A stretch of DNA of 64,000 nt from Minisyncoccia bacterium (GTDB taxonomy: Bacteria; Patescibacteriota; Minisyncoccia; Phycocordibacterales; PALSA-1337): the NCBI GenBank assembly GCA_049997795.1, contig JBEKVT010000001.1:243751-307750 (forward strand). Direction: 5' to 3'. Under the pieces are notes generated by a model that searched no databases, was not told where the DNA came from, and was given only the letters and a program-made list of their open reading frames with translations. Below, in pieces: positions 481 through 62,951 of this stretch (position 1 is its first letter; each line of letters opens with the position of its first letter). A program made the translations under genes and the position numbers.

Positions 481-1104
481 CTACTTGAGCACGCTGTTCA
501 GCGAGACTATGTCGCTCACGAACACTTTTTCGAAGCAGCCGGCTTCCGCCGAGTTGCTGCCGACGCTGCTTATGATGACGGCCCGGATGAGGTCATCCTT
601 GACCTTCACATAGCCGTCCGTCCTCGAGTTGGCTCCGTCGGAGAACAATGGCTCGATGTTGAAACCCTGTACCTTGAGATCCAGGCCCCAATTGCGGCTG
701 TCCTTGAGCTCGGACAGATAATACCCGAAGAGCGTCGGCCTGTAGAAATTGACCTTGCAGGTCTGGGTCGTCCATTCCTGGCCGGGCAGGTCAACCTCTT
801 TTGAAGTGAACGAGTTGATGTTGTAGACGTACAGGGCGTCCTTTTTCACTGTGGAGGCCGTCGTCCATTGGAGTTCCGGCCTGTACAGAGGCGGAGTCTC
901 GAGCGACTGGTCCACCAGGCTCGGCGAGACATCGATGGTCTGACCGACTTGCACGGATGACAAGCTCAATGTGTTCTGTTTCGCTTGCCAAGCCACATCT
1001 TCGTACTGCATGCCGATGTAGAAGGCCCATACGGTGGCCAGGACGAACACAAGCAACGTCAGCGCCTTAGAATACCAAGTGACCTTGTTCCACACGACCG
1101 TCAT
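481..1104 (-). CDS. membrane-anchored hypothetical protein (N-terminal TM, extracytoplasmic domain)
   Basis: ORF 481..1353(-). Internal Met (MTVVWNKVTWYSKALTLLVFVLATVWAFYIGM...) precedes a single hydrophobic anchor and is the likely start; no recognisable family. Confidence 0.5.
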   Translation of the reverse strand: MTVVWNKVTWYSKALTLLVFVLATVWAFYIGMQYEDVAWQAKQNTLSLSSVQVGQTIDVSPSLVDQSLETPPLYRPELQWTTASTVKKDALYVYNINSFTSKEVDLPGQEWTTQTCKVNFYRPTLFGYYLSELKDSRNWGLDLKVQGFNIEPLFSDGANSRTDGYVKVKDDLIRAVIISSVGSNSAEAGCFEKVFVSDIVSLNSVLK

Positions 1105-1269
1105 GCCGTAAATTGTATCACAGCCGTGCCGCGATAGAACTAGCAGCTGTGCATAACCGAGTTTTTTCGAATCGCTCTCGGCCCGTTCCACGCCAAAAAT
1201 GAAGAAAACCCCATATTGAGGTACAATTCTCTTGTGGAAACGCCACCTCCAGAAAATAAGAGATTCTCC

Positions 1270-1639: not shown

Positions 1640-2680
1640 ATGTCTGACTCCGACTACAATTACATCCTGCCGAAAGGCTTCATCGCCAACGCCCCCGCCG
1701 ATCCGCGCGATGCCTCGCGGCTGTTCGTCTATAGCATCAAGACTAACGAGATCGTCCTCGATACCTTCGCCAACCTGGCCCGTTATGTCCCTGCGGGCTC
1801 GGTCCTCGTCATCAACGACACGAAGGTCGTGCCGGCGCGCCTAGAGCTCTCCAATCTATCCGGCCGCAGCCTGCGCGTCCTCATCTTGTTCAACGAGTGG
1901 GACGGCGGTCCGATGGTTAAGGGCCTTCCCGACAAGGACGTCGCCACGGGCGAGCCCTTGTTCTGGAACGAGCGGCCGTGCCTCGAGGCGGCCTCTCACG
2001 TGAGGCAGGAATTCACCTTCAGATTGCTCATGCCGGCCGCCGAGTTCGAGAGGCTGTGCGAGAAGCATGGTCAGACGCCTCTGCCGCCCTACATCCACAC
2101 CGCTCTTCCCGAGAAAGAGCTGCGGGAGAAGTATCAAACCACTTTCGCCGCCAACCCGAGCTCGGTGGCGGCGCCCACGGCCTCGCTCCACTTCACCCCC
2201 GGCGTCTTCCGGTCGCTCGACGACAAGGACGTGAAGCGCGCTGCGGTGACGCTCCATGTCGGCCGGGGCACTTTCTCGCCGGTCTCGTCGGAGATGGCGT
2301 CGACTGGCAAGCTCTATCCGGAGCCGATCCAGATCGGCGAAGAATCAGCCAGGATGGTCGCCGAGGCCAAAAGGGCCGGCAGGACCGTCGTGGCGGCCGG
2401 CACCACCTCGGTCCGGCTCCTCGAGTCGGTCCCTGAGGCTATCCTAGAAGGAAAGGGGTATCACGGCGAGACCACCCTTTTCATCCGGCCGCCATACCGA
2501 TTCGTGGTCGTTGATGCCCTGCTCACCAACTTCCACCTGCCCGGCACCTCGCTCCTCATGCTCCTCGACGCCTTTCTCCGCTTCAAGGGGGCCAAGAAGT
2601 CTTGGCGCGACCTGTACGACCGGGCCATCGAAGAGAAATTCCGGTTCTATTCGTTCGGCGATGCCATGTTGATTATATGA
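1640..2680 (+). CDS. queA: S-adenosylmethionine:tRNA ribosyltransferase-isomerase
   Basis: 346 aa; N-terminus DYNYILPKGFIANAPADPRDASRLFV and LPPYIHT motifs typical of QueA; full length. Confidence 0.85.
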   Translation: MSDSDYNYILPKGFIANAPADPRDASRLFVYSIKTNEIVLDTFANLARYVPAGSVLVINDTKVVPARLELSNLSGRSLRVLILFNEWDGGPMVKGLPDKDVATGEPLFWNERPCLEAASHVRQEFTFRLLMPAAEFERLCEKHGQTPLPPYIHTALPEKELREKYQTTFAANPSSVAAPTASLHFTPGVFRSLDDKDVKRAAVTLHVGRGTFSPVSSEMASTGKLYPEPIQIGEESARMVAEAKRAGRTVVAAGTTSVRLLESVPEAILEGKGYHGETTLFIRPPYRFVVVDALLTNFHLPGTSLLMLLDAFLRFKGAKKSWRDLYDRAIEEKFRFYSFGDAMLII

Positions 2681-2705
2681 AGGCGGCTCTATATAATCAG
2701 ACCTC

Positions 2706-3344
2706 ATGAACATTAGACGCACCCTCTTCTGGTCAGGCTTTGTCGTCGTACTCGTCCTCATCGTCTGGGGTCTCATCGCCTCCATGGGGAGGCAGGCGTC
2801 TACTCCCGTCTTTGGCACCCCGGCGCCGGTCTCGTCTGCCGACCATGTCCGCGGCCCCTCCGGCGCCCCCGTCACTGTCATCGAATACAGCGATTTCCAA
2901 TGCCCGGCCTGCGAGGCCTACTACCTTCTGATGGAACAGCTTTTATCCGGCGCCTCGACCACCATGCGTCTGGTCTACCGTCATTTTCCCCTGCCTCAAC
3001 ATCCGAACGCCGCTCTGGCGGCCCAGGCTTCCGAGGCCGCCGGCATGCAGGGCAAGTTCTGGGAAATGTACGGCCTCTTATTCCAGGATCACGCCGAATG
3101 GACGGATGTCCCTGATCCGCACCAGGCTTTCGACGGCTATGCCTTGAGGCTCGGCTTGAATGTCGGCAAGTTCAAATCGGACATGGATAGCGCAGCCGCG
3201 AAGGGGATCGTAGACGGCCAGCTTGCCGAAGGCCAGTCTATCGGCATAGATTACACTCCGACGTTCTTCGTGAACGGCAAGGTCATAAATAATCCCCAAA
3301 GCTATGAGCAGTTTAAGGCGATCATTGACGCGGCCGCTCGCTAG
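2706..3344 (+). CDS. DsbA-family thiol:disulfide oxidoreductase (membrane-anchored)
   Basis: N-terminal TM anchor, thioredoxin-fold CPAC active site (YSDFQCPACEAYY), cis-Pro region HFPLP. Confidence 0.8.
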   Translation: MNIRRTLFWSGFVVVLVLIVWGLIASMGRQASTPVFGTPAPVSSADHVRGPSGAPVTVIEYSDFQCPACEAYYLLMEQLLSGASTTMRLVYRHFPLPQHPNAALAAQASEAAGMQGKFWEMYGLLFQDHAEWTDVPDPHQAFDGYALRLGLNVGKFKSDMDSAAAKGIVDGQLAEGQSIGIDYTPTFFVNGKVINNPQSYEQFKAIIDAAAR

Positions 3345-3816
3345 GGAAGCGGCGACTCGGGCAGTCGTCTTCTTTATGATCATGGCCCTCGTCGGCTTCG
3401 CCGACTCCACCTTCCTCGCAGTGGAGCATTATCGCGGCGTCATCCCGCCGTGCTCGGCCAACGAGGGCTGCGAAAAGGTCCTCTCCAGCCAATACTCGGC
3501 GGTCTTCGGCGTCCCGACGGCGCTTTTCGGCTCGCTCTATTATCTAGCCGTCTCACTCGGCTCCTTCATATATCTGGAGTCCAGACACGGCAGAGGTTCG
3601 GTCGCGGCGCACCACGCGGCCATCCTCAAATGGACCATGCTCGCGACCGTTCTCGGCTTTGTCATGTCGCTTTGGTTCGTCTATCTGCAATTATTCATCC
3701 TGCGCTCGATCTGCATCTATTGCATGGGCTCGGCTGCCACCTCCACGGTCCTTTTCATCGCCGCCGCGACGATGCTCAAAAAGTATTCGGCCGCCGATCG
3801 GCCTCCCACGGTCTAA
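3304..3816 (+). CDS. vitamin K epoxide reductase (VKOR)-family protein, DsbB-like partner of DsbA
   Basis: Multi-TM protein with a CxxC pair (PPCSANEGCEKV ... CIYCMGS) typical of bacterial VKOR. Start uncertain (3304 overlapping dsbA by 41 nt, or Met at 3377). Confidence 0.7.
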   Translation: MSSLRRSLTRPLAREAATRAVVFFMIMALVGFADSTFLAVEHYRGVIPPCSANEGCEKVLSSQYSAVFGVPTALFGSLYYLAVSLGSFIYLESRHGRGSVAAHHAAILKWTMLATVLGFVMSLWFVYLQLFILRSICIYCMGSAATSTVLFIAAATMLKKYSAADRPPTV

Positions 3817-5648: not shown

Positions 5649-6500
5649 ATGAACATCCCTGAAAGGTTCTGGAAGGCTGCCACGGGCGCTCTCGGCCTCC
5701 TCGCGATCTTCCTCATAGTCGTCTCCATAAAGGAGCTCAAGGCCATCGGCTATGTCGGCGTCAATCCGCAGGGACCGAACACTATTACGGTGAGCGGCAC
5801 AGGCGACGCCATGGCCGCGCCCGATGTGGCCACGTTCTCCTTCACGGTGACAGAGACGAAAACGACCGTCGCCGACGCCCAGAAAGCCGCCACCGACAAG
5901 GTCAATTCCGCTCTGAAGGCCGTGCGCGACGCCGGAGTGGCCGACAAGGACATCCAGACGGAGTCCTATTACATCAACCCTCACTATGAATATCAGGGCG
6001 AAAGCTGCGTCTATCAATCAGATTCCGGAAGCGGCACCGTTTCGGGCGGGGGGACGATGGTCCCGTCGCTGCCGTCCGTGCCCGTCTGCCGTCCCGGCAA
6101 GAACGTTTTGACCGGCTATGACGTCAGCCAGTCCATCCAGGTCAAGGTGCGCGACCTCGGCAAGGCCGGCGCCATCTTCACCACCATCGGCTCGCTCGGC
6201 GTGGAGAGCGTGAACGGCCTGGCCTTCTCTATAGATGATCCGGATTCCGTACAAGCCCAAGCCCGCACAAAGGCCATCGCCGACGCGCAGTCGAAGGCCA
6301 AGGAATTGGCCAAAGAGCTCGGCGTCAGCCTCGGCCGCATCACGAGCTTCTCGGACGACAATTATTATCCGCGGCCTGTGATGTACGCAATGGGCGCCGC
6401 CGTCGGCAATGAATCCTCTAAAAGCGCTACCCCGCCGGAGATCCCGGCTGGCGAACAGAAGACGACTGACACGGTTTCCATCACTTACGAGATAGAGTAG
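5649..6500 (+). CDS. SIMPL-domain (DUF541) periplasmic/immunogenic protein family
   Basis: N-terminal TM anchor followed by SIMPL-like repeats (ATFSFTVTETKTTVADAQKAATDKVNSALKAVRDAGV ... AQARTKAIADAQSKAKELAKELG). Confidence 0.65.
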   Translation: MNIPERFWKAATGALGLLAIFLIVVSIKELKAIGYVGVNPQGPNTITVSGTGDAMAAPDVATFSFTVTETKTTVADAQKAATDKVNSALKAVRDAGVADKDIQTESYYINPHYEYQGESCVYQSDSGSGTVSGGGTMVPSLPSVPVCRPGKNVLTGYDVSQSIQVKVRDLGKAGAIFTTIGSLGVESVNGLAFSIDDPDSVQAQARTKAIADAQSKAKELAKELGVSLGRITSFSDDNYYPRPVMYAMGAAVGNESSKSATPPEIPAGEQKTTDTVSITYEIE

Positions 6501-6518
6501 GCGCCCTTTCTGCGGCGT

Positions 6519-6547
6519 TTGACTTCGATAATCGAGAGGTATATCAT
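6519..6547 (+). promoter_or_regulatory. candidate sigma70-type promoter for secE-nusG-rplK (TTGACT-17-TATCAT)
   Basis: TTGACT at 6519-6524, 17-nt spacer, TATCAT at 6542-6547, about 40 nt upstream of secE. Confidence 0.4.
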
Positions 6548-6588
6548 GAACGGGCAATCCCGGAGCAGGGGTTTTTTAATACAAAAGC

Positions 6589-6768
6589 ATGAAGATCGGC
6601 GAATATATCAAGGCTACTCGAGCCGAAATGGCCCACGTCAACTGGCCGACCCGGACGCAGACCATCCGCTTCACCGTGGCCGTTATCGCGGTCTCCATCT
6701 GTACGGCCGTCCTCCTTGGCATCTCCGATTTCGTCTTCTCGCGCCTCCTTACCCTTCTCTTCAAATAA
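6589..6768 (+). CDS. secE: preprotein translocase subunit SecE
   Basis: 59-aa ORF MKIGEYIKATRAEMAHVNWPTRTQTIRFTVAVIAVSICTAVLLGISDFVFSRLLTLLFK. Classic single-TM SecE directly upstream of nusG; below the 60-aa cutoff of the ORF track. Confidence 0.85.
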   Translation: MKIGEYIKATRAEMAHVNWPTRTQTIRFTVAVIAVSICTAVLLGISDFVFSRLLTLLFK

Positions 6769-6769
6769 C

Positions 6770-7315
6770 ATGGCCAAACAACAGATGACAGGGGAACGCA
6801 ACTGGTATGCCATCCACACTTACGCCGGCTATGAGAACGCCGTGGCTAGGAACCTGAAGCAACGCATCGAGTCGCTCGGCATGGAGGACAAGATTTTTGC
6901 CGTGGTCGTGCCGACCGAGAAGAAGATCAAAGTGAAGAGCGGCAAGAGGGCGGAAGAAGAAGAGAAGATCTACCCCGGCTATGTCCTGGTGGATATGATC
7001 GTCACGGACGACAGCTGGTACGTGGTCAGGAACACGCCTCGGGTGACCGGCTTCGTCGGCTCCGGCGTCTATCCTGTGCCTCTCGACAAGGCCGAGGTCG
7101 AATCGCTCTTCGCCCGCATGCAGAAAGGCGAAGCCGAGCACGCCATCGACCTCGCTATAGGCGACCTGGTCAAGGTGGCCGACGGGCCCTTCAAGGATTT
7201 CGAAGGCAAGGTCAGCGAGGTGGACACCCAGCGCGGTAAGATCAAGGTCCTGGTGTCGATGTTCGGCCGGGAAACGCCGGTCGAGCTCGATTTCTTGCAA
7301 GTCAAGAAAGTTTAA
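6770..7315 (+). CDS. nusG: transcription termination/antitermination factor NusG
   Basis: NGN domain (WYAIHTYAGYENAVARNL) and C-terminal KOW (GDLVKVADGPFKDFEGKVSEVD); start at Met 6770, two nt after the secE stop. Confidence 0.9.
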   Translation: MAKQQMTGERNWYAIHTYAGYENAVARNLKQRIESLGMEDKIFAVVVPTEKKIKVKSGKRAEEEEKIYPGYVLVDMIVTDDSWYVVRNTPRVTGFVGSGVYPVPLDKAEVESLFARMQKGEAEHAIDLAIGDLVKVADGPFKDFEGKVSEVDTQRGKIKVLVSMFGRETPVELDFLQVKKV

Positions 7316-7335
7316 GGTAGGTTTCATCCATCGCC

Positions 7336-7758
7336 ATGGCCAAGAAAGTCATCAAAACGGTCAAAGTCATCGCCCCGGCCGGCAAAGCCACCCCGGCGCC
7401 GCCCTTGGGTCCCACCCTGGGCCAGGCCGGCGTCAACATCGGCGATTTCACCAAAAAGTTCAACGAAGCCACCAAGGGGATGGGCGGCGACATGATCCCG
7501 GCGGTCATCTCCATATACGAAGACCGCACCTACAGCTTTGTTTTGAAGACTCCGCCGACCTCGAGCCTGATCCTGAAAGCCCTCGGCAAGGAGAAGGGCT
7601 CCGGCAAGCCGAACACGTCGAAGGTCGGCAGTCTCACCAAGACCCAACTGAAGGAGATCGCCCTGAAGAAGATGCCGGACCTGAACGCTTCGGATATCGA
7701 GACGGCCATGAAGGTAGTGGCCGGCACGGCCAGACAGATGGGCGTGGAGGTCAAGTGA
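7336..7758 (+). CDS. rplK: 50S ribosomal protein L11
   Basis: [43 protein letters not shown]...; canonical L11. Confidence 0.95.
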
Positions 7759-7794
7759 TGCCCGGACGCCGTCTGGGCCGAAAATGAGGACAAA

Positions 7795-7826
7795 AAAGCG
7801 CCGGCGATGAGCTGGCGCTTCGTGTC
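7795..7826. terminator. bidirectional hairpin between rplK (+) and the convergent HD-domain gene (-)
   Basis: AAAAAAGCGCCGGCGATGAGCTGGCGCTTCG: GC stem with an A-run upstream (T-run on the minus strand). Confidence 0.45.
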
Positions 7827-45074: not shown

Positions 45075-45851
45075 TATAGGCACATCGGAATGATTACAAA
45101 CATTAATCGCCAACATACGCGGCCGTAGCCACACCCCTTTTAACTAGAGGCGTGATGCGGAGCCGCCCAATGAAGCGGTTTTTCGTTTTTACGGGACGAC
45201 TGAAGCTTGAAAATCTCATACCTCAAACAAGTATGTAAGGTCCGTCGGGCTCGGGTCGAGCCGGGCGGACAAAGCAATGTAGGTAATTAACACAAGCGGT
45301 TTTTAGAGTTCCCGACGGGAATTCTAAGGGCGTATGGTGGATGCCTTGGCTTCATGGAGGCGATGAAGGACGCGGCGTGGCGGCGATATGCTTCGGGGAG
45401 GTGCCGAGCAACCTTTGATCCGAAGATTTCCGAATGGGGAAACCCCGTGATGTGAACCATCATGACCTATGTAGTTACTCTATATAGGAGCGTACCCTGG
45501 GAAGTAAAACATTTCAGTACCAGGAGGAATAAAAACAAACTATGCATTCCGTCAGTAGCGGCGAGCGAACGCGGAGGAGACTAAACTCAACCTAAATCGT
45601 ACGGAGCCAGCCGAAAGGCTCGTGCCGTGCGATTTAGGTTGGGAGTTGCAAGGCGGAGACGTGCCGTTTATCGGCAGAGAAGTTACAAAATCTTTCGTTA
45701 GTCGAATCATCTGGAAAGATGAGCCCCAGCAGGTGACAGCCCTGTAGATGAAAATAAAAGATCTTCTTTGTTTCCGTTCTTAAGTACCCCGGGACACGAG
45801 AAGCTCGGGGGAATCCGCCGGAACTAACCGGCAAGTCTAAATACTCCAGAA

Positions 45852-45891
<40 letters not shown>

Positions 45892-46626
45892 CAGCCCGGA
45901 AGGGCGGTGAAATAGACCTGAAACCATATGCCTACAAGGAGTCGGAGCGGGCAGGACTTCGCGTCCGGAAAGTCGGAAGCGGGGCCCTGTCCGTCACGGC
46001 GTGCCTATTGAAGAATGAGCCAACGAGTTCAAGCAAGCAGCTCTGCTAAGGGCGAGAGCCCGGAGCAACAGGGAAACCGAGTCTGAATAGGGCGTTCGTT
46101 GTTTGCTTGAGACCCGAAGCCGGATGAGCTTGCCACGCGCAGGGTGAACCTTTCCGAAAGGAAAGGGGAAGCCCGAACCGGTGAGCCGTGCAAAACTCTC
46201 GGATGACGTGTGGTAAGGAGTGATAAGCTAATCGAATTCGGTAATAGCTGGTTCTCTCCGAAAGAACTTTTGGGTTCGCGTCGCGTTTACCCTTGCGGGG
46301 TAGAGCACTGGAAGATCTCGACAGGCCGAAAGGCCGCGAGACCTATCAAACTCCGAATACGCAAGGTCACTGCGCGGCAGTTAGACTGTGGGGGCTAAGC
46401 TCCATTGGTCAAAAGGGAAACAGCCCATGATCTCAATTTAAGGTCCCTAAATCGACGTTAAGTGCGCTTAAGGTGGTGATATCTCTCCGACAATGAGGAT
46501 GTAGGCTTAGAAGCAGCCATCATTCAAAAAAAGCGTAACAGCTTACTCATCGAGAGGTGTCGCGCCGCAGATAATCGGGGCTCAAACGTCGTACCGAAAC
46601 TGAGGGCTTGTGAACTTCATTGAGGA

Positions 46627-47073
46627 AAATTTTGTTCTTTTAGCCGGTTCCCGCGTAACTAGTCGGCATGGGCGTGCCCGCTGTCTCCCAAGTCAGCAAC
46701 GCTGATCGCTGAATAACGGGAACCGGTGTCGATTTCGCGTCGGAAGGCGGCTCGAATGCGTCGAGCGCTCGAAAGCGGTGGATTAACCTAATCCCAGGTA
46801 AGGAGCCTGGACTAGCTCACTATATCTCTGTGAACCACTGCTTTAAAGCATCGTTCGTTTTCGAGTCTGCCTTCCGACCGGATTTGGTGTCGGGGTGTGG
46901 CGTAGCCCGGTAGCGCGCTCGCTTTGTGGGGCAACAACGTATACCGTGTGTTAAGCACGGCGTGCTAGTGATGATGAGCCATAGATAGTAATCCCCATCT
47001 TGCGAGAAGTCGTCGGTTCAAATCCGACCACCCCGACCAAACTTTTTCTGGCATTTTTCAGGTAAAAATGCCT
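46627..47073 (+). other. intervening sequence (IVS) in 23S helix 45, closed by a 19-bp stem
   Basis: CTTGTGAACTTCATTGAGG (46608-46626) pairs with CCTCAATGAAGTTCGCAAG (47074-47092), one G-U. Flanking sequence aligns to E. coli 23S on either side of helix 45 (about nt 1170), the site of known Salmonella/Yersinia IVSs. Confidence 0.7.
46891..47039 (+). tRNA. tRNA-like element inside the 23S IVS, with a 72-nt insertion in the anticodon loop (possible anticodon UGU)
   Basis: Acceptor CGGGGTG/CACCCCG (7 Watson-Crick bp), U8, D-arm GCGT-AGCCCGGTA-GCGC (G18G19 present), anticodon stem CTCGC/GCGAG, 5-nt variable loop, T-arm GTCGG-TTCAAAT-CCGAC, discriminator A plus encoded CCA. Confidence 0.5.
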
Positions 47074-47786
47074 CCTCAATGAAGTTCGCAAGCGGTAGGA
47101 GAGTATTCGCATCGCCTTGAAGGTGAAGGGGTGACCCGCACTGGAGCGTTGCGAAGTAAGAATGTTGGCACAAGTAACCGCAATGCGGGCGAGAATCCCG
47201 CACGCCGAAAGACCAAGGTTTCCTTGGCAATGTATATCAGCCAAGGGTTAGTCGGTCCTAAGGGGATGGCGAACGCCGCACCCGATGGACACACGGTTAA
47301 TATTCCGTGACTTTCGCGAAGATCGATGGAGCGACGAGGGGCAGTATGCTGCGCGTATTATCGGATTTAACGTTCATGCTGTAAGGATGGGTCCCGGCAA
47401 ATCCGGATCCTGCTTTCGATGGCGAACCCGAGCGGAGTGAAAATGCCGCAAGGCAAATACAGCAAAGCGCCCCTTCAAGAAAAACTTCTAAGATCATCTT
47501 CGCGAGAACCGTACCGCAAACCGACACAGGTGGTCAGGTCGAGTAGACCAAGGCGAACGAGTGAGAGGTCTCCAAGGAACTCGGCAAAAAAGCAGCCGTA
47601 ACTTCGGAATAAGGCTTGCCCTTCGTTCAATCGAGGGGCCGCAGCTAAAGTATCTCTGGCAACTGTTTAACAAAAACACAGCTCCCTGCGAACTCGAAAG
47701 AGGATGTATAGGGGGTGACACTTGACCAATGCGAGAAGGTCAAATAACGACGGTGCGATCACATCAAGCTGATTGTTATAAGCCCT

Positions 47787-47826
<40 letters not shown>

Positions 47827-48452
47827 CAATTCCTTGTCGGGTAAGTTCCGACGCGTTGAATAGTGCAATGACTGGAGAACTGTCTCGGAGACTCGCTCGG
47901 TGAAAATACAATACCGGTGAAGATGCCGGTTACCTGCAGTTAGACGAAAAGACCCTAGAAGCTTTACTGTAACTTGATATTGACCATACGTGCTCCATGC
48001 GTAGCGTAGATGGGAGGATTTGAGGCGTTCCTTTCGGGGGGCGCTGATCCGTCGATGAAACACCATTCTTGGATTATGTATGTTCTAACCTCGGCGGCAT
48101 AAACGCCGGGAGACAGTATCTGGTGGACAGTTTTAGTGGGGCGCTATCCTCCTAAAAAGTAACGGAGGAGCCTATTAAGTTCAGCTAGGCGCGAATGGAA
48201 ACCGTGCCGATAGTGTATGGGCACAAGCTGGATTGACTGCGAGACGTACGTGTCGAGCAGATGCGAAAGCAGAGCCAAGTGAACCGACCGTGGGCGTTAG
48301 ACGCCGCGGAAGATTATCGGACAAAAGCTACTCTAGGGATAACAGGCTAGTTCCGCCTAAGAGTTCATATCGACGGCGGAGTTCGGCACCTCGATGTCGG
48401 CTCACCACATCCTGGGGGCGGAGAAGCTCCCAAAGGTTTGGCTGTTCGCCAA

Positions 48453-48496
<44 letters not shown>

Positions 48497-48826
48497 TGGT
48501 CTCCTATCTACTGCAGGCGTTGATGCTTGAGGGGAATTGACTCTAGTACGAGAGGACCGAGTTGAACGGACCGCTGGTCTACCTGCTGTCGTGCCAACGG
48601 CACCGCAGGGCAGCTATGTCCGGATCGGATAATCGCTGAAAGCATATAAGCGAGAAGCCGGCCCCAAGATGAGGCATCGTCAAGACCCGTGAGAGATGAT
48701 CACGTTGATAGGCGTTAGGTGTACGCGCCGCAAGGCGTTGAGCCGGGACGTACTAATCCGTCGATCTCGTCGGGAACCCTGAAAATCGCTGTGATAATCA
48801 CCACATTGCTATGATCAAACTTGTTT

Positions 48827-48947
48827 GGACTGGAACGGTATGTGTTGCTTTCATTGAAAATGATCTTCACCGGACTTCGTGGTGACGCAATACATGTCTT
48901 GCCCAGCGGGTCATTTTCAATTCAAACAACACATACCGTTCCAGTCC
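48827..48947 (+). repeat. extended inverted repeat (21-bp perfect stem plus extension) in the 23S-5S spacer
   Basis: GGACTGGAACGGTATGTGTTG (48827-48847) vs CAACACATACCGTTCCAGTCC (48927-48947); arms extend a further 11 nt imperfectly; the loop carries its own hairpin. Confidence 0.6.
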
Positions 48948-48979
48948 AGAGGCATGAGCATATCGCATTGAATCTTGCG

Positions 48980-49090
48980 TTCTGGTGGTTCAGCGCTGTG
49001 GCACCACCCGTTCTCATTCCGAACACGGCAGTGAAACGCAGTTGCGGCGATGATAGTCCCATTGGGGCGAAAGTAGCTTGCCGCCAGAAC
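48980..49090 (+). rRNA. rrf: 5S ribosomal RNA
   Basis: TTCTGGTGGTTCAGC ... CCGAACACGGCAGTGAAACG ... CTTGCCGCCAGAAC; helix I pairing of the termini; conserved loop C/helix III. Confidence 0.8.
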
Positions 49091-54704: not shown

Positions 54705-56081
54705 ATGCTTAAGCACCGGGCCAAGGCCTTCTATATCGTCGTCATCGCCGCTTTGGTCGGCTATTTTGTTTACGCCACCAACGCCCCGGGCGCCAGATTC
54801 CCGTTCAAGCTGGGCCTGGACCTCTCCGGCGGCACCCACCTCGTCTATCAGGCCGACGTCTCGAAGCTCGCCCCGGCCGACATCTCCGCTTCCATGGCGG
54901 CCTTGAAAGACGACGTCGAACGGCGCATCAACATCTTCGGCGTCTCCGAGCCTCTGATCCAGACCGAACAGGCCGCCGCCCTTTCCTCGAAAGAAGCCGC
55001 CTACAAGCTCATCGTCGAGCTTCCGGGCGTCACCAACGTCGACGAGGCTGTGAAGGCCATCGGCGCCACTCCGAACCTGGAATTTCGCGTGGCCACGGCC
55101 AATGACCTGAAGACCTTCTCGAGCTCGAAGGAAGCGACAGCCACGACCGCTCCCGAGACCAAGAATGCCGCCTATCTGGCTCTCTTCAAGCCGACGGGCC
55201 TTACAGGCGCCATGGTGGGCAAGGCCAGCCTGCAGTTCAATCCGACCACTAACCAGCCTGTCGTGGGTCTCACCATGAACAACGATGGCCGCGTCCTTTT
55301 CGATACCCTCACCAAAAATCACACCGGCGACTACATCGGCATCTTCCTTGACGGCGTCCTCATCGAGGCCCCGGTCGTCCGGGAAGAGATCCCCAACGGC
55401 CAGGCCCAGATCACGGGCGGCTTCACCGTCGAGACGGCTCAGACCCTGGTGCGCAACATCAACTTCGGTGCCCTGCCCATTCCCGTCACCCTTATCTCCA
55501 CCCAAACGATCGGTCCGACCCTGGGAGCAGAAGCCGTGAAGGGCGGCATCGAGACGGGCGTTATCGCCTTCATCCTGATCGGTCTCTTCCTCGTCCTTTG
55601 GTACAGGTTGCCCGGCCTGGTGGCGACCGTCGCCTTGGCCATATACGCCGCCATCATGCTGGCCCTCTTCAAGCTCATCCCGGTCACCCTGACCGCCGCT
55701 GGCATCGCCGGCTTCATCATAACGATAGGCATGGCCGTCGACGCCAACATCCTCATCTTCGAGCGCATGAAGGAGGAGCTCCTCCGCGGCCGGGGCATCT
55801 GGGACGCCATGCATGAAGGCTTCGCCAGGGCCTGGCCTTCCATCCGCGACTCGAACGTCTCCTCGATCATCACCGGCTTCATCCTGTACAAGTTCGGCTC
55901 GACCTCCATCGTGACGGGCTTCGCCCTGGTCTTCGTGATCGGCGTCCTGGTGTCCCTCTTCACGGCCATCACCGTCTCGCGCCTCTTCCTTTATTCCGTG
56001 GCGCCGTCAAAGACGACCAAGCTCTCGCAATTCCTCATCAGCAACGGCTTTCGCAGACATAAACCGCCGACCAACGTTTAA
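54705..56081 (+). CDS. secD: protein translocase subunit SecD
   Basis: N-terminal TM, periplasmic domain, and C-terminal 6-TM block with ...GIAGFIITIGMAVDANILIFERMKEEL. Confidence 0.9.
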   Translation: MLKHRAKAFYIVVIAALVGYFVYATNAPGARFPFKLGLDLSGGTHLVYQADVSKLAPADISASMAALKDDVERRINIFGVSEPLIQTEQAAALSSKEAAYKLIVELPGVTNVDEAVKAIGATPNLEFRVATANDLKTFSSSKEATATTAPETKNAAYLALFKPTGLTGAMVGKASLQFNPTTNQPVVGLTMNNDGRVLFDTLTKNHTGDYIGIFLDGVLIEAPVVREEIPNGQAQITGGFTVETAQTLVRNINFGALPIPVTLISTQTIGPTLGAEAVKGGIETGVIAFILIGLFLVLWYRLPGLVATVALAIYAAIMLALFKLIPVTLTAAGIAGFIITIGMAVDANILIFERMKEELLRGRGIWDAMHEGFARAWPSIRDSNVSSIITGFILYKFGSTSIVTGFALVFVIGVLVSLFTAITVSRLFLYSVAPSKTTKLSQFLISNGFRRHKPPTNV

Positions 56082-56093
56082 ATCGATACCACC

Positions 56094-56987
56094 ATGTGGA
56101 TAGTCAATAACAGAAAGATCTTCTATAGCATCTCCATCGCCTTGGTGGTCATCTCCATTCTGGCTCTCAGCGTCTGGAAGCTCGTTCCCTCGATCGACTT
56201 CACCGGCGGCACCCTGATCGACGTCTCATATTCGAGCGGCAATCCCGACCAATCGGCCGTAGCCAAGGCACTCTCGACCGTCGACCCGGCCGTTTCCGTC
56301 CGCCCGTCCGGCACCGGCGGATTCATCGTGCGCATGAAGGCCGTCGACCAGAATGAGAAAGCCGCCGTGGTGAGCGCCCTGTCCTTGAACAGCACCGCCT
56401 CCTCGACCATCGCCTCTTTCGATTCCGTCGGTCCGGTCCTTGGCCTCGAAGCCGTCAAGCGCTCCATAGTCTCGGTCCTCCTCGTCATCCTCGGCATCAT
56501 CATCTACATCACCTGGGCCTTCCGCAAGGTCTCCCAGCCGGTCTCTTCCTGGAAGTACGGCCTGGTGGCCGTCGTCTCGCTCGTCCACGATGTCATCATC
56601 CCCATGGGCGCCTTCTCCATCCTGGGGCACCTCTTCGGCTATGAAGTCGACACCCTCTTCGTCACGGCCGTCCTCGTCATCCTCGGCTTCTCCGTCCACA
56701 ACACCATCGTCGTCTTCGACCGCGTCCGCGAGAACCTTAGGACCTCCTCCGGCAAGAAGCCGTTCCTCGAGATCGTGGGGGAGAGCATCAGCCAGACCTT
56801 CACCCGCTCCATGAACACTTCCGCCACCGTCGTCCTGGCCCTCGTCGTCCTCTACATCCTCGGCGGCTCCGCCACCGCCCACTTCACCCTGGCCCTCATC
56901 ATCGGCATCGTGGCCGGCACCTTCTCGTCCGTCTTCATCGGCTCGCCGCTCCTCGTCACTATCGAGAGGTGGCAGGGGAAGAGATAG
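56094..56987 (+). CDS. secF: protein translocase subunit SecF
   Basis: SIDFTGGTLIDV and ...LGFSVHNTIVVFDRVRENL motifs; 297 aa. Confidence 0.9.
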   Translation: MWIVNNRKIFYSISIALVVISILALSVWKLVPSIDFTGGTLIDVSYSSGNPDQSAVAKALSTVDPAVSVRPSGTGGFIVRMKAVDQNEKAAVVSALSLNSTASSTIASFDSVGPVLGLEAVKRSIVSVLLVILGIIIYITWAFRKVSQPVSSWKYGLVAVVSLVHDVIIPMGAFSILGHLFGYEVDTLFVTAVLVILGFSVHNTIVVFDRVRENLRTSSGKKPFLEIVGESISQTFTRSMNTSATVVLALVVLYILGGSATAHFTLALIIGIVAGTFSSVFIGSPLLVTIERWQGKR

Positions 56988-57137
56988 TTCTAATTCTTGC
57001 TGTTCGAGTACAAGCCTATACTAGTAGCAACGTTGAAATCGGAACGTTTTTAGGTGTTTTTGCCAGCATCGACTATAGATTGTAGTTTAATACCACACTA
57101 GCAAAATAGTAAAACCTGAGTAACATAAAGATAATCA

Positions 57138-58946
57138 ATGGTTATTAGCAAACTCTACATTCAGAATTATCGTTGCTTTGGCGAGGAGCCCGCTGTTATT
57201 GATTTTGCAAAAACGAGCTTGATGGCATTTGTGGGTAGCAACAATGCCGGTAAGAGTACTGCATTAAGGGTAATAGAGATTTTACTTGGTGATAAATGGC
57301 CGTCGAGTCAGTTTTCAGAAGATGACTTTTACAAGAAAGACTTTGGGAGAAAAATTGTAATGGCATGTGAATTCTCAGAGAACATAGTTATTCCAGAATC
57401 ACGATCAGCAGGTGGACGTACAAAAAGCATTAAAGGTCTTATTATTGAAGTTGCATATCTATCTAGTGGGCATGGTCAAAATTCCACCGAGGTGGAATTT
57501 CATCTGATTGAAACAATAAATGACTTCAGTGTTGCTGATTGGCAGATTGCATGTTATGGAACATCCGATAAGAAAATATATGTATCACAAGAAATTAGAA
57601 ATCATCTCCCGATTGCTATCACTATCCCTTTGATCAAGCTCCAATCAGAGCAGCCATCGAACAAATGGAGTGTTATTGGTAAGATGCTTCAGAAAGTCGA
57701 AAATGCCTTTAGTAATGATCAATCAAAGAAAACACGATTTGAAAGAGGTATTAGAAGGGTAATGAGTATACTCCGTGAGCCAGCTGAATTTGCAACACTT
57801 GAAAGAGATGTAACTACGTTCTGGAACGAGGTAAAACCCAACAATCTTTCAGGGACTGCTCTGCAGTTTTTGGATTATGATCCATGGCATTATTATCGGC
57901 AATTCCATCTAGCTATTACAAAGAATAAAGAAGACGTTCCACTAGAAACACTAGGAGAAGGAATTCAGCGTTTGGCTATCATCTCTCTTTATCGCGCATA
58001 CTTGAAAGCGCATAGCCGAAATCAAAGAGCCATCCTTCTTATTGAAGAACCGGAGAGTTATCTACATCCTCAGGCTCGAAGTATTGTTTACAAGATACTT
58101 AGAAAAGCAGTGGAAGGAACAGATATTGAAGGTCAGATTATTTATACTACTCACTCATCAGATTTTCTGAGTTGTGAATTCTTTCAAGAAATTGTTGTAT
58201 TCACTGAAACTTCAGATGGGTCTATAACAAGACAGGTAAATAAACTGAGAATGCAGAGCCAAACTGCTGCTCTAACCGGAATCGACCCGGCTACGCAAAT
58301 TGACCCCATGATTTATTATAGGCTTACGGAAATTGATACCTATGGCTTAAAAGATGCACTGTTTTCCGGACTTGCAGTTATAGTCGAAGGTCCAACTGAT
58401 TTTGAATTTTTAAAGGCCTTTGGAGGAACTGAAGAAAAACAAACTTCAATTGTGATTGCTGCAGGTAAGGCTGTTATACCTGCAATATATTCATTTCTAA
58501 CAGCATTCGGTGTCAGAACTGCCGTCTGTATAGATCAGGATAATGCAAACCCCGGTGAATCGAACGCTACCCTTGCATCGTTGATAAACGAACGCAGGAT
58601 TAATAACCTTTCCTTACGTACACGAGTATTTACCGAAGCAGAAATCAACTCTGTTCCTGCCGGGTCACTAACTGTTTTCAGAAACTTACTAGTTTTCGCA
58701 AGAGATATTGAGAATGTTTTAGATTCCAGAATCCCGAATTATCATACACTTACTACTTCTCTAAAATCACGTCTAAATTTAGGCAACAGCAAACCAAAAC
58801 TCATGTTCGCTCTGAAACTGTGTGCCGAAGGAAGAATTCCTTCCCTGACTTTATCTACTGAACAAAGAGCAGCCTTAGAAACTCTTACTGCGGAAATCAA
58901 TACTTTTTTGAACCAACGGATTTTACAGCCCGTGCTTATAGTTTAA
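57138..58946 (+). CDS. OLD-family ATP-dependent endonuclease (N-terminal ABC-type ATPase + C-terminal Toprim), class 1 stand-alone architecture
   Basis: Walker A GSNNAGKST (aa 33-41), ABC signature-like LGEGIQRLAII, Walker B/H-loop ILLIEEPESYLHPQ, Toprim Glu in LAVIVEGPTDFEFL and DxD in CIDQDNANPGE; 602 aa (P2 Old is 586 aa). Confidence 0.8.
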   Translation: MVISKLYIQNYRCFGEEPAVIDFAKTSLMAFVGSNNAGKSTALRVIEILLGDKWPSSQFSEDDFYKKDFGRKIVMACEFSENIVIPESRSAGGRTKSIKGLIIEVAYLSSGHGQNSTEVEFHLIETINDFSVADWQIACYGTSDKKIYVSQEIRNHLPIAITIPLIKLQSEQPSNKWSVIGKMLQKVENAFSNDQSKKTRFERGIRRVMSILREPAEFATLERDVTTFWNEVKPNNLSGTALQFLDYDPWHYYRQFHLAITKNKEDVPLETLGEGIQRLAIISLYRAYLKAHSRNQRAILLIEEPESYLHPQARSIVYKILRKAVEGTDIEGQIIYTTHSSDFLSCEFFQEIVVFTETSDGSITRQVNKLRMQSQTAALTGIDPATQIDPMIYYRLTEIDTYGLKDALFSGLAVIVEGPTDFEFLKAFGGTEEKQTSIVIAAGKAVIPAIYSFLTAFGVRTAVCIDQDNANPGESNATLASLINERRINNLSLRTRVFTEAEINSVPAGSLTVFRNLLVFARDIENVLDSRIPNYHTLTTSLKSRLNLGNSKPKLMFALKLCAEGRIPSLTLSTEQRAALETLTAEINTFLNQRILQPVLIV

Positions 58947-59096
58947 TAAAGTGGCTGTCGATATTCTTCCAATTCTCGTTGCACGAGGGCTCACCCCCGT
59001 ACCAGACAGCCAGTCTGAATCAACGTAGTATCGAAGTTATGCCGAAGAGTTCCTAGACTTCGTTTATTGCAGATTAGTCCTGTATGACTAATCCCA

Positions 59097-59525
59097 TTAT
59101 TTAAATTTCTTCTTCCAGTCTATTCCAAAGGCGAGAAGCATAATGAGAAGGGCTACTGGAATTGAGACCATTAGCCACATTGAAATAAAAATTAATCCCA
59201 TCAATGTATATCCTTGCCATATCGGCACACTGCTTGCTTGGGTCGATGTGGCTATTGACGCAAGCGGAATCACATATGATCCGATTCCTATAAGTATCGT
59301 GTTATTTAGCCATTTTAAATGCCTCTCATCAATCTTGTCACCAAGAGCCGTGAAGAAAATGTAGTCGATGATATAAGCTGCTACAAGTATACATCCTGCC
59401 AGCTGCACACCAGAGAAAATAGTGAGAAAAAAGACTAGCATTATGACCACGAATTGTAGGCGGATCTCGATTTTGTTAGTCAATCTTTCTTTCATATCTT
59501 GCATGGCATAAGTATACATCATCAC
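59097..59525 (-). CDS. hypothetical 4-TM small membrane protein
   Basis: About 140 aa, four hydrophobic helices, AT-rich codon usage like its neighbours; convergent with the OLD gene. Start ambiguous (MMMYTYAMQDMKERL...). Confidence 0.5.
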   Translation of the reverse strand: MMMYTYAMQDMKERLTNKIEIRLQFVVIMLVFFLTIFSGVQLAGCILVAAYIIDYIFFTALGDKIDERHLKWLNNTILIGIGSYVIPLASIATSTQASSVPIWQGYTLMGLIFISMWLMVSIPVALLIMLLAFGIDWKKKFK

Positions 59526-59633
59526 AAATGATGTTTTTAATCTTGTAATTTCGATGTAGAATTAACTAGAGTCCTGAAATGTTACTTCGCTAGTTAAAAA
59601 GGTCCCAACGACACACCTCGCAGCTACAAGAAT

Positions 59634-60377
59634 ATGCAAAATGAAATAATCAATTCATTTAAAGAGGAGATAAAGAAAAGATTAACCACCTCTTTTTATG
59701 GCACATATATTATATTCTGGCTCATCTTTCATCATGAGTTTGTTCTCTCGTTATTCTTTGCAGATGGTGACAAAATATGGTCTACAACAGGACTTCTGAA
59801 GAGTCAGTATCTAAGCAAAGAATTTTTTAACTCCCAAGATTGGCACTCCTATTTGGGGTGGATGGTACCAATTATTTTGACCTGGCTATTTATTGAATAT
59901 TTCCAGAAGTACGTTGCTATTTACTTTTTTAGACTTGAACAGTTATATGATACTGAAAAGAAAATTATCCAAATTTCTGAACAAAGAAAAATAGAGGTTG
60001 CACAAAAGAGTCTTGAAAAAGCAAGTGTTGAAAAACTAGAAGTTGTAGAAAAGAAAACACAAAAAGAAAAACAAATACGATCCATTGACCCAACAATAGA
60101 GTGGCAAAAGGAACTCGAGTACATTTCTTCTAACCAGTCTGCATTGATGGCTATTAGGGACGCGGTTCTTATTATCTATAGAAGTGGTGGCGAATTCACA
60201 GGTGACGTTGGACTTTCAAATTCTATCGCTCAACCATACCTAAACCCAGATTCATTGTCACGCCTTGATACTATGGATATAGTCAGTATTTCTAAAGGAA
60301 TTTATGGCAATAAAATAGCATTTACCAGTAAAGGTAAGTATTTAGTGAGAAGACTACAAGAACAAGGAAAGGTTTAG
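59634..60377 (+). CDS. hypothetical membrane protein with two TM helices, Lys/Glu-rich coiled coil, and C-terminal winged-helix-like domain
   Basis: TSFYGTYIIFWLIFHHEFVLSLFF and LGWMVPIILTWLFIEYF helices; EQRKIEVAQKSLEKASVEKLEVVEKKTQKEKQIR coiled coil; C-terminal ...IAFTSKGKYLVRRLQE. Confidence 0.5.
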   Translation: MQNEIINSFKEEIKKRLTTSFYGTYIIFWLIFHHEFVLSLFFADGDKIWSTTGLLKSQYLSKEFFNSQDWHSYLGWMVPIILTWLFIEYFQKYVAIYFFRLEQLYDTEKKIIQISEQRKIEVAQKSLEKASVEKLEVVEKKTQKEKQIRSIDPTIEWQKELEYISSNQSALMAIRDAVLIIYRSGGEFTGDVGLSNSIAQPYLNPDSLSRLDTMDIVSISKGIYGNKIAFTSKGKYLVRRLQEQGKV

Positions 60378-60558: not shown

Positions 60559-60809
60559 AGCTCTTACCTCTCATAACAAGCAAAACGCCTTGTTACCCGA
60601 GGCGGAACTTTGAAAGTCACATAAAGAGAATGTATTAAGCTTCTTCGAGGTCCTGCTAACCCGGGACGACGAGGAAAGTGCAAGTACACATATATTCAAA
60701 CAATGATTACGATGGATTCCGTAGATTCAACGGATCCGACCGAGCAGAGGATGGCGAAATTAAGATAGACGGTTAGCGCCTTCTATTTTGTTCCGTTCGC
60801 TTATAGTTA

Positions 60810-62300
<1,491 letters not shown>

Positions 62301-62839: not shown

Positions 62840-62921
62840 GGGCACGTGGCGGAACTGGTATACGCGTACGCCTCAGAAGCGTATGGAGCAATCCTTGGGA
62901 GTTCGAGTCTCCCCGTGCCCA
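62840..62921 (+). tRNA. tRNA-Leu (anticodon CAG), type II with long variable arm
   Basis: Acceptor GGGCACG/CGTGCCC, 3-bp D-stem GCG/CGC, anticodon stem TACGC/GCGTA with loop CTCAGAA, 13-nt variable arm, T-arm GGGAG-TTCGAGT-CTCCC, discriminator A; CCA not encoded. Confidence 0.8.
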
Positions 62922-62951
62922 CAAGCGTTCGAGATGCTATCATAAGCCCCA

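Follow-up and report, generated by a model that had tools for sequence, protein, structure and literature searches.

tRNA-derived modules in a helix-45 intervening sequence of the 23S rRNA gene of a Minisyncoccia bacterium and its relatives: candidate signals for rRNA processing

What is a nearly complete transfer RNA (tRNA) cloverleaf doing inside a 23S ribosomal RNA (rRNA) gene? The question is raised by a stretch of 64,000 nucleotides (nt), hereafter the window, taken from contig JBEKVT010000001.1 (assembly GCA_049997795.1, positions 243,751 to 307,750 of the forward strand) of an uncultured member of the Minisyncoccia (Paceibacteria/Parcubacteria), which belongs to the Candidate Phyla Radiation (CPR) and comes from peat metagenomes. 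Helix 45 of its 23S gene is interrupted by an insert that holds a tRNA-like module. Dozens of relatives have similar inserts with one to five such look-alikes each, which suggests that tRNA-processing enzymes help to cut this rRNA. In the reading that we favour, and to which we would give an even chance, the insert is an intervening sequence whose tRNA-derived modules do not decode and act as processing “punctuation”, leaving the 23S rRNA split.

The host gene occupies 45311-48776 on the + strand (Rfam LSU_rRNA_bacteria, 2360.8 bits, model positions 1-2925) and, with 3466 nt against the 2925 positions of the model, is overlong by ~540 nt. A first-pass annotation of the window had estimated about 550 nt and had placed the extra sequence in helix 45, a classical intervening-sequence site of 23S rRNA, and both statements held. 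When 46619-47080 was taken out of the window sequence and the rest aligned to the E. coli 23S rRNA, the helix closing the insert fell on E. coli positions 1164-1185, that is helix 45, with the loop near 1173-1177. In the closest relative with a retrievable complete 23S gene (locus L013, RodA 77% identical), helix 45 is only a short hairpin, cttgtgattttc-TTCG-gaatgatgcag, and the insert is absent. Comparison with this hairpin (L013 5143-5170) delimits the inserted block as 46619-47080 on the + strand, 462 nt standing in place of the tetraloop. The block thus represents a genuine insertion at the helix tip that is not fixed in the lineage; its distribution is sporadic, with L013 lacking it and scattered lineages of Paceibacteria having it. 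Moreover, the insert region is 100% identical across seven independent assemblies, one of them a 657-kb contig, and is thus not an assembly artefact. Besides the helix-45 insert, the extra length of the gene is made up by three smaller expansions relative to the Rfam model, at ~45595-45630 (36 nt), ~45662-45681 (20 nt) and ~45952-45983 (32 nt). The 5-kb 23S gene of L013 carries intron-type insertions at other sites and contains an open reading frame (ORF) for a LAGLIDADG endonuclease (6114-6626).

How is the insert built? The minimum-energy fold of 46600-47100, computed without constraints, reaches z = -9.8 against shuffled sequences and is closed by 21 contiguous base pairs (bp), 46606-46626 with 47073-47093. 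The first-pass annotation had recognised this long stem but counted 19 bp, its 5′ strand lying one to two bases off; the length found here could suit an RNase III substrate. Two hairpin domains, the cloverleaf and a terminal hairpin fill the interior. All parts lie on the + strand. The 5′ strand of the closing stem consists of the native part of helix 45 (~46607-46618, mapping to E. coli 1164 onward) and a conserved extension, ATTGAGGA (46619-46626); across the family this strand shows the conserved motif TTTCAyNGAGGA, with covarying middle positions. It is followed by an unpaired U-rich linker, AAATTTTGTTCTTTTA (46627-46642), which contains the sub-family motif GTTCTTT; about 13 of 40 family members have this motif immediately inside their closing stem. 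Domain 1 (46643-46727) is a hairpin on an 11-bp basal stem, GCCGGUUCCCG/CGGGAACCGGU, that is, the inverted repeat annotated earlier at 46644 and 46723, whose arms lie at 46643-46653 and 46717-46727. Domain 2 (46730-46886) is a long irregular hairpin of about 157 nt in the same fold. Beyond the four leader bases (46887-46890) and the tRNA-like module (46891-47039) comes a second U-rich linker, AACTTTTTCT (47040-47049), likewise unpaired and with a similar ..TTTTCT-GGCA junction in relatives, and then the terminal hairpin, GGCAUUUUU-CAGGU-AAAAAUGCC (47050-47072), which adjoins the closing stem. The 3′ strand of that stem and of helix 45, UCCUCAAUGAAGUUCGCAAGC (47073-47093), carries the conserved motif TCCTCNrTGAA and leads into the flank GGTAGGAGAGTATTC.

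The suggestion that the part of the insert preceding the module might be a structured RNA is borne out as far as structure goes, since 46643-46886 is strongly structured; the structure is, however, idiosyncratic. Neither domain 1, nor domain 2, nor the 72-nt piece within the module described below has a homolog in the other inserts, BLAST matches to these being confined to flanks, T-arm and terminal hairpin. An Rfam scan of 46560-47140 (E <= 1) returned tRNA as the sole match, with no group I intron or other known RNA, and our family model (see below), run with filters off, detected no further tRNA-like module in domains 1 and 2 or in the rest of the window 23S gene (E < 0.1). A K-turn or C/D-box reading of GUGAUGAUGAGC within the insert was considered by eye only and set aside, as no matching box D and no asymmetric bulge were seen.

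The module itself is a true tRNA-like cloverleaf. The Rfam model RF00005 scores 46891-47036 at 51.7 bits (gathering threshold 29; E = 3.4e-8 over the 64-kb window), and the family model (R1) gives 57.6 bits. Each of the features that had been listed for it is present in the sequence: an acceptor stem, CGGGGTG/CACCCCG, paired 7/7 (46891-46897 / 47029-47035); T8; a D-arm (46900-46916) with GG in its loop; an anticodon stem, CTCGC/GCGAG (46918-46922 / 47002-47006); a variable loop (47007-47011); the T-arm GTCGG-TTCAAAT-CCGAC (47012-47028); the discriminator A47036; and an encoded CCA (47037-47039). In addition, the leader bases lengthen the acceptor helix through the pairs U46890-A47036, G46889-C47037 and G46887-C47038. 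The body presumably recalls E. coli tRNA-Pro, with C1-G72, A73, UG at positions 8-9 and the D-arm GCGYAGCCYGGUAGCGC, and the loci L031, L034/L053 and L077 also have modules with a tRNA-Pro-like body.

Can such a module decode? A decoder would have an anticodon loop of 7 nt with U33 and a purine at 37, and the window module fails on this count with a loop of 79 nt (46923-47001), the loop being canonical only if a 72-nt piece were taken out. ARAGORN, which misses the module at default settings, reports tRNA-Thr(tgt) when introns are allowed, with a 72-nt intron (39,72) at the 37/38 position, corresponding to 46929-47000. The earlier annotation had likewise put a 72-nt insertion at 37/38. The size agrees with the ARAGORN call. 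A group I intron was rejected, there being no Intron_gpI match at E <= 1, and so was a bulge-helix-bulge intron, as two 3-nt loops face each other instead of being staggered across a 4-bp helix. The 79-nt loop folds as an extension of the anticodon arm, with a 3x3 internal loop, a helix GUGGGG/CCCCAU and two small hairpins. Judged from this predicted fold, the 72 nt are an extended arm rather than a recognisable intron, and their exact placement at 37/38 cannot be established. What had been described as a near-canonical tRNA is best seen as a tRNA derivative that does not decode; of the 59 modules of the family described below, 40 have non-canonical anticodon loops. The bacterial Y-RNA-like YrlA was also considered as an identity for the module. 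YrlA is permuted, ends in an Rsr-binding stem and has its acceptor-like stem closed by a loop; in the window module, by contrast, the acceptor ends are open and it is the anticodon arm that is closed, and at E <= 1 tRNA was the only Rfam match.

The arrangement is not unique to the window. Public contigs were scanned for a consensus T-loop (GGTTCRANTCC) situated 45-75 nt upstream of GGTAGGRGAGYRTTC, the conserved 23S strand that comes after helix 45. The scan gave 40 metagenome loci and 23 species-representative genome loci; after removal of duplicates 51 distinct sequences were left, four of which are chance matches and ~47 of which are 23S genes interrupted at the window's site. Among the chance matches, the T-loop of L040 belongs to a transfer-messenger RNA (tmRNA) gene, and L046, L068 (Lachnospiraceae) and L074 (Thermoplasmata) are without 23S context, the last two also having weak T-stems. 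L040 is a 2123-nt human gut contig (OYNU01000432.1) in which the tmRNA gene (747-1146, minus strand) lies between permuted 23S segments; read along the minus strand, the order is window-23S positions 2501-3368, tmRNA, then about 1760-2433, probably a chimeric assembly or a rearrangement. The insert family is found mostly in Paceibacteria, and the named genomes are nearly all Patescibacteria (Kaiserbacteria, Yanofskybacteria, “Paceibacterota”, Parcubacteria, one Saccharibacteria and the complete genome CP174360.1). The architecture recurs in CP174360.1 and OZ253947.1, which are complete or chromosome-level genomes. Three loci have odd taxon labels, namely L072 (Bacillota), L073 (a proteobacterium) and L075 (Rhodospirillales); their flanks are of CPR type, which suggests errors of binning.

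The Rfam tRNA model gave 24 matches above gathering (31-70 bits), spread over 19 of 24 representative loci and every one falling within the LSU match. A family covariance model was then built from 36 embedded elements, and the genome-derived loci were assessed with it and with BLAST against the window 23S; for every named genome locus, the BLAST alignment breaks at the insert site. With this model we count 59 distinct helix-45 modules at one to five per insert, with two in several inserts, three in L034/L053 and five in tandem in L067. The L067 array (7281-7800; Parcubacteria group bacterium LiPW_15) sits in one insert of more than 800 nt, and NCCA closes all five of its modules. In several of them position 33 is C or the loop is of unusual size, whereas one combines a canonical loop with a CUA anticodon. 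The 448-nt helix-45 regions of L034 and L053 differ at a single position, which falls within the first module's “anticodon” (AAG against AAC). A like module was also found outside helix 45, in the 23S-5S spacer of L060 (7206-7337; metagenome-assembled genome LejiaB_42_15, Paceibacterota). Its anticodon loop carries a 67-nt insertion, it ends in GCCA and it stands on a leader-trailer helix. An outer stem of 16 bp (~7173-7188 / 7396-7411) surrounds it, between the end of the 23S gene at 7106 and the start of the 5S gene at 7442. ARAGORN, run on loci L015-L077, assigned many of the modules to ordinary tRNAs or to suppressors (Leu-taa, Pyl-cta, SeC-tca, Trp-cca and others).

Which parts of the modules are kept, and which are not? 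In the model-based alignment 94.6% of 1341 stem cells form standard pairs, against 61.0 +/- 1.0% with shuffled columns and at most 53.8% when the structure is slid by one to three columns. The stems are 92-99% paired, and double-sided changes occur in 20 of 21 pairs. Because this alignment was fitted to the model, and because common descent also makes tRNAs of different types covary, 49 elements picked by their T-loop alone were examined separately. In these, the acceptor stem has 7/7 pairs in 35 and at least 6/7 in 47, and CCA stands exactly at positions 74-76 in 33. The anticodon loop behaves otherwise. It is canonical (7 nt, U33, purine at 37) in only 19 of the 59 modules, three of which carry CUA or UUA and so read stop codons. 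The non-canonical loops have 3-12 nt, a base other than U at 33, or insertions, with 14-79 nt in 11 modules, among which the window loop is the largest. Insertions in the anticodon loops of related modules come in many sizes and D-loop insertions occur too. In short, the 7-bp acceptor stem, the 5-bp T-arm, the D/T elbow and usually NCCA, all of them features read by RNase P, are kept, and the part that decodes is not.

The ends of the modules are conserved as well. NCCA is present in 41 of 59, and each module stands on a leader-trailer helix of its own, which often takes in N73-CCA. The mean energy of cognate leader-trailer duplexes is -7.47 kcal/mol, compared with -4.50 +/- 0.28 for permuted combinations, and 0 of 200 permutations reach the cognate value. 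In L045 the tail reads CTA (ACTA) and is matched by the leader TAG (TAGT), a compensatory change. The only ordinary tRNA gene in the window, tRNA-Leu(CAG) at 62840-62922, lies 540 nt downstream of the 16S gene. It lacks an encoded CCA (A-CAA), in contrast to the 41 of 59 embedded modules with NCCA; as a control for CCA it is the one clear case (n = 1), a 6 kb extension of the contig having added no tRNA, and the comparison is a lead only. A “tRNA-Val” in L058 was discarded as a further control, as it has C33, directly follows the 23S gene and may itself be a module.

Around the modules a common chassis recurs, composed of the stem TTTCAyNGAGGA / TCCTCNrTGAA with its covarying middle, the U-rich linkers and a 3′ hairpin, often GGCA...TGCC, which abuts the 3′ stem strand in nearly all family members. 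L051 and L073 share chassis and hairpin, with a compensatory change between them, and differ in their tRNA bodies; similarly, Kaiserbacteria-type flanks hold differing cargo in L045, L056, L064, L076 and L077. The chassis is the conserved component and the cargo the one that turns over.

What could select for a tRNA shape that cannot decode? The retention of acceptor stem, T-arm, elbow and CCA together with the loss of decoding points to a structure read by enzymes that recognise tRNA shape. RNase P is plausibly the most economical candidate reader, given its established recognition rules, and RNase P RNA is present in CPR genomes (PMC8172020). We favour a role as punctuation because the insert occupies a classical site within a long closing stem, because the like module of L060 occupies a 23S-5S spacer, another point at which cutting of the precursor is required, and because insertions in CPR rRNA genes are reported (PMC11270868, citing Brown 2015) to be removed from transcripts. 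The course of events may be pictured as follows. The insert would be transcribed within the pre-23S rRNA and would fold into closed modules, so that helix 45 could still form, and it would be removed without religation. RNase III would cut the long duplexes, that is the closing stem and possibly the leader-trailer helices, while the tRNA shape would recruit RNase P at 46890/46891 and a 3′-end activity would act near 47036-47039. Exonucleases might then shorten the ends as far as the closing stem and the terminal hairpin. The 23S rRNA would end as two pieces of ~1.3 kb and ~1.7 kb joined through helix 45.

Several points weigh against this reading. The sites of excision and cleavage are placed from DNA and not from RNA, and the 21-bp closing stem may be sufficient for an ordinary RNase III route, making the tRNA shape dispensable. 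In model bacteria RNase P needs a free RCCA, so that the pairing of the leader with N73-CCA (A73-C74-C75 in the window) disfavours this enzyme, and an encoded CCA is an anti-determinant that blocks RNase Z. Entry of RNase P and RNase Z at the module, as proposed in the first-pass annotation, is plausible on structural grounds, yet leader pairing and encoded CCA make the simple picture in which P cuts 5′ and Z cuts 3′ an uncertain one. Moreover, up to five modules exceed the needs of a cutting signal, and domains 1 and 2 and the 72-nt insert lack an explanation under it. Since the cargo differs between closely related 23S genes, the intact cloverleaves could in part reflect recent arrival and not selection. 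Finally, detection by a covariance model or by the T-loop is biased toward an intact T-arm.

Perhaps, then, the modules are tolerated passengers, copies or pseudogenes of tRNA genes that have landed in an intervening sequence, whose compact fold spares 50S assembly and which RNase III alone removes. We hold this to be rather unlikely, although several points speak for it: the closing stem of 21 bp is like that of classical RNase III substrates, cargo turns over fast between related 23S genes, distribution is sporadic with L013 insert-free, and module quality ranges from 84 down to 22 bits, with L021 no longer detected, so that domains 1 and 2 of the window could be fully decayed modules. The pattern of conservation speaks against it, however. 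In the T-loop-selected elements the acceptor stems, a mutational target of 14 nt, are far better kept than the anticodon loops; indels concentrate in the anticodon loop; the stems carry many compensatory changes; leader, trailer and positions 74-76 covary, as in the ACTA tail and TAGT leader of L045; and NCCA is retained in 41 of 59 modules.

The same retention of the L-shape and of NCCA without a decoding loop could be expected of a tRNA mimic with a function of its own, either as abundant CCA-ended small RNAs freed from the precursor or as an expansion of helix 45 retained in the ribosome, a reading that we hold to be unlikely. Candidate partners, in trans or in cis, would be the CCA-adding enzyme, synthetases, EF-Tu and tRNA-targeting toxins or host factors. 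Modules set one by one on stalks, up to five in a row, resemble products rather than a single signal, and the leader-CCA pairing that is awkward for RNase P fits a stable stalk. In addition, G3-U70, the identity pair of alanyl-tRNA synthetase, is present in 14 of 65 aligned rows. The CCA ends of the modules, set against the CCA-less tRNA-Leu, would be in keeping with modules copied from mature tRNAs. Against such a function, expression and partner are, as far as the sequences go, purely hypothetical, the module sequences are highly heterogeneous with no obvious single ligand, and removal of the insertions of CPR rRNA from transcripts has been reported (PMC11270868). An unseen class of rRNA-borne tRNA mimics, retained in ribosomes or released in amounts matching rRNA, is in our judgement unlikely. 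If it existed, the mimics could act in trans on tRNA charging or CCA addition, or as decoys for tRNA-targeting factors.

A true tRNA gene within the rRNA operon, giving a functional Thr-UGU after loss of the 72-nt intron, is very improbable. It has in its favour the high score of the tRNA model and the ARAGORN call of Thr(tgt), with the intron in its usual position, and it is normal in bacteria for rRNA spacers to hold tRNA genes. Fully canonical modules are found in relatives, with Trp-CCA in four, Lys-CUU in three and canonical Ala, Cys, Asp, Ile, Glu and Thr modules in others, and some of these could work. For the window, the 79-nt loop without a group I fold or a bulge-helix-bulge excludes it in practice, as we know of no route by which bacteria could splice such an insert. 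G37 is unusual for a tRNA-Thr, the module body is, as we take it, Pro-like and not Thr-like, and 40 of the 59 family modules cannot decode. As for an assembly or binning artefact that would have joined tRNA and rRNA reads, rRNA is hard to assemble from metagenomes and the labels of L072, L073 and L075 are implausible, but the identity of the insert in seven independent assemblies including a 657-kb contig, the same architecture in CP174360.1 and OZ253947.1 and the colinear 23S sequence on both sides of the insert leave it a negligible chance.

How does punctuation by tRNA-derived modules compare with known systems? The nearest are the RNase III-excised intervening sequences of Salmonella, Yersinia, Campylobacter, Leptospira and Coxiella, which occupy the same site (about E. 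coli 1170) and likewise have a long closing stem, a sporadic presence and a presumed removal without religation. The size of the window insert is similar to that of the Coxiella insert (428 nt; PMC4990558). These classical inserts carry nothing recognisable or an S23p-type ORF, and none has been described with tRNA-like cargo. The present family, known from sequence alone, differs from them in its sequence-conserved chassis and its one to five tRNA-shaped modules. Insertions in the rRNA genes of the same group of organisms, the CPR, have been described by Brown 2015 and Tsurumaki 2024 (PMC11270868). According to the latter, short insertions that are neither introns nor ORF carriers match known 23S intervening-sequence sites at 23IS2 and 23IS4 and were taken for probable sequences of the RNase III type. 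The paper describes neither tRNA-like content nor module arrays nor a chassis; in this 2024 survey of insertions in 348 CPR 23S genes, the word “tRNA” has 0 occurrences.

A second group of parallels is formed by tRNA-like processing signals. The pre-5S element of Haloferax volcanii (cut by tRNase Z), the t-elements of plant mitochondria and the mascRNA of MALAT1 are of this kind. They too present a non-decoding tRNA shape within a longer transcript at a point where a cut is needed, and they retain acceptor stem plus T-arm, 12 bp in all, together with the D/T elbow, while leaving the anticodon free, as do the window module and its family. They lie singly at transcript ends or between genes, unlike the helix-45 modules, which lie inside an rRNA helix and in arrays; and experiments have demonstrated that RNase P or Z cleaves them. 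A third group comprises spacer tRNAs, the “tRNA punctuation” of mitochondria and the mitochondrial LSU rRNA of Tetrahymena, which is split by a tRNA-Leu gene. Here again tRNA units are co-transcribed with rRNA and mark cleavage, the Tetrahymena tRNA lying between the LSU pieces. These are working tRNA genes, however, whereas most helix-45 modules cannot decode, and the latter sit at the tip of a helix of an otherwise colinear bacterial 23S rRNA. As to introns of the anticodon loop (group I in bacteria, bulge-helix-bulge in archaea and eukaryotes), they share with the window module an insertion, at 37/38 by ARAGORN, but 72 nt are too short for group I and the loop geometry is not that of a bulge-helix-bulge.

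The surroundings of the gene deserve a brief description. The rRNA genes of the window are unlinked and stand in an unusual order: the 23S and 5S genes (45311-49089) are followed by nine protein-coding genes, among them those for RodA, glycosyltransferases and SecDF, and then by the 16S gene (60803-62297), 11.7 kb beyond the 5S gene. The same 23S-5S / 16S synteny is seen in the relatives L013 and L014. Between secF and the 16S gene, a low-GC island (56000-60000; 38% versus about 57%) contains a gene for an OLD/AriA/GajA-like ATPase-nuclease (57138-58946, + strand; PADLOC Old, E = 7e-38). Two small neighbouring ORFs had no defence-family match.

The first-pass annotation knew of no precedent for a tRNA within an rRNA intervening sequence, and we likewise found no published report of a tRNA or tRNA-like element in a 23S intervening sequence in a search that left subscription journals largely outside. 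A 2026 study of tRNA introns in Patescibacteria makes no mention of the helix-45 modules. This suggests that a family of rRNA intervening sequences with tRNA-shaped modules has so far gone undescribed. There is a practical side to this. Default tRNA finders either miss the modules or call them tRNA genes, apparent suppressors included, so that CPR annotations may over- or miscount tRNAs inside 23S genes, and tRNA inventories and inferences on the genetic code can be distorted. To our knowledge, processing of rRNA by the tRNA machinery was previously known only from organelles and from one archaeal 5S case. If the modules do direct the cutting of 23S rRNA, a large branch of the bacteria would be using its tRNA-processing machinery in ribosome biogenesis, and such a role would explain uncharacterised short insertions in CPR rRNA genes.

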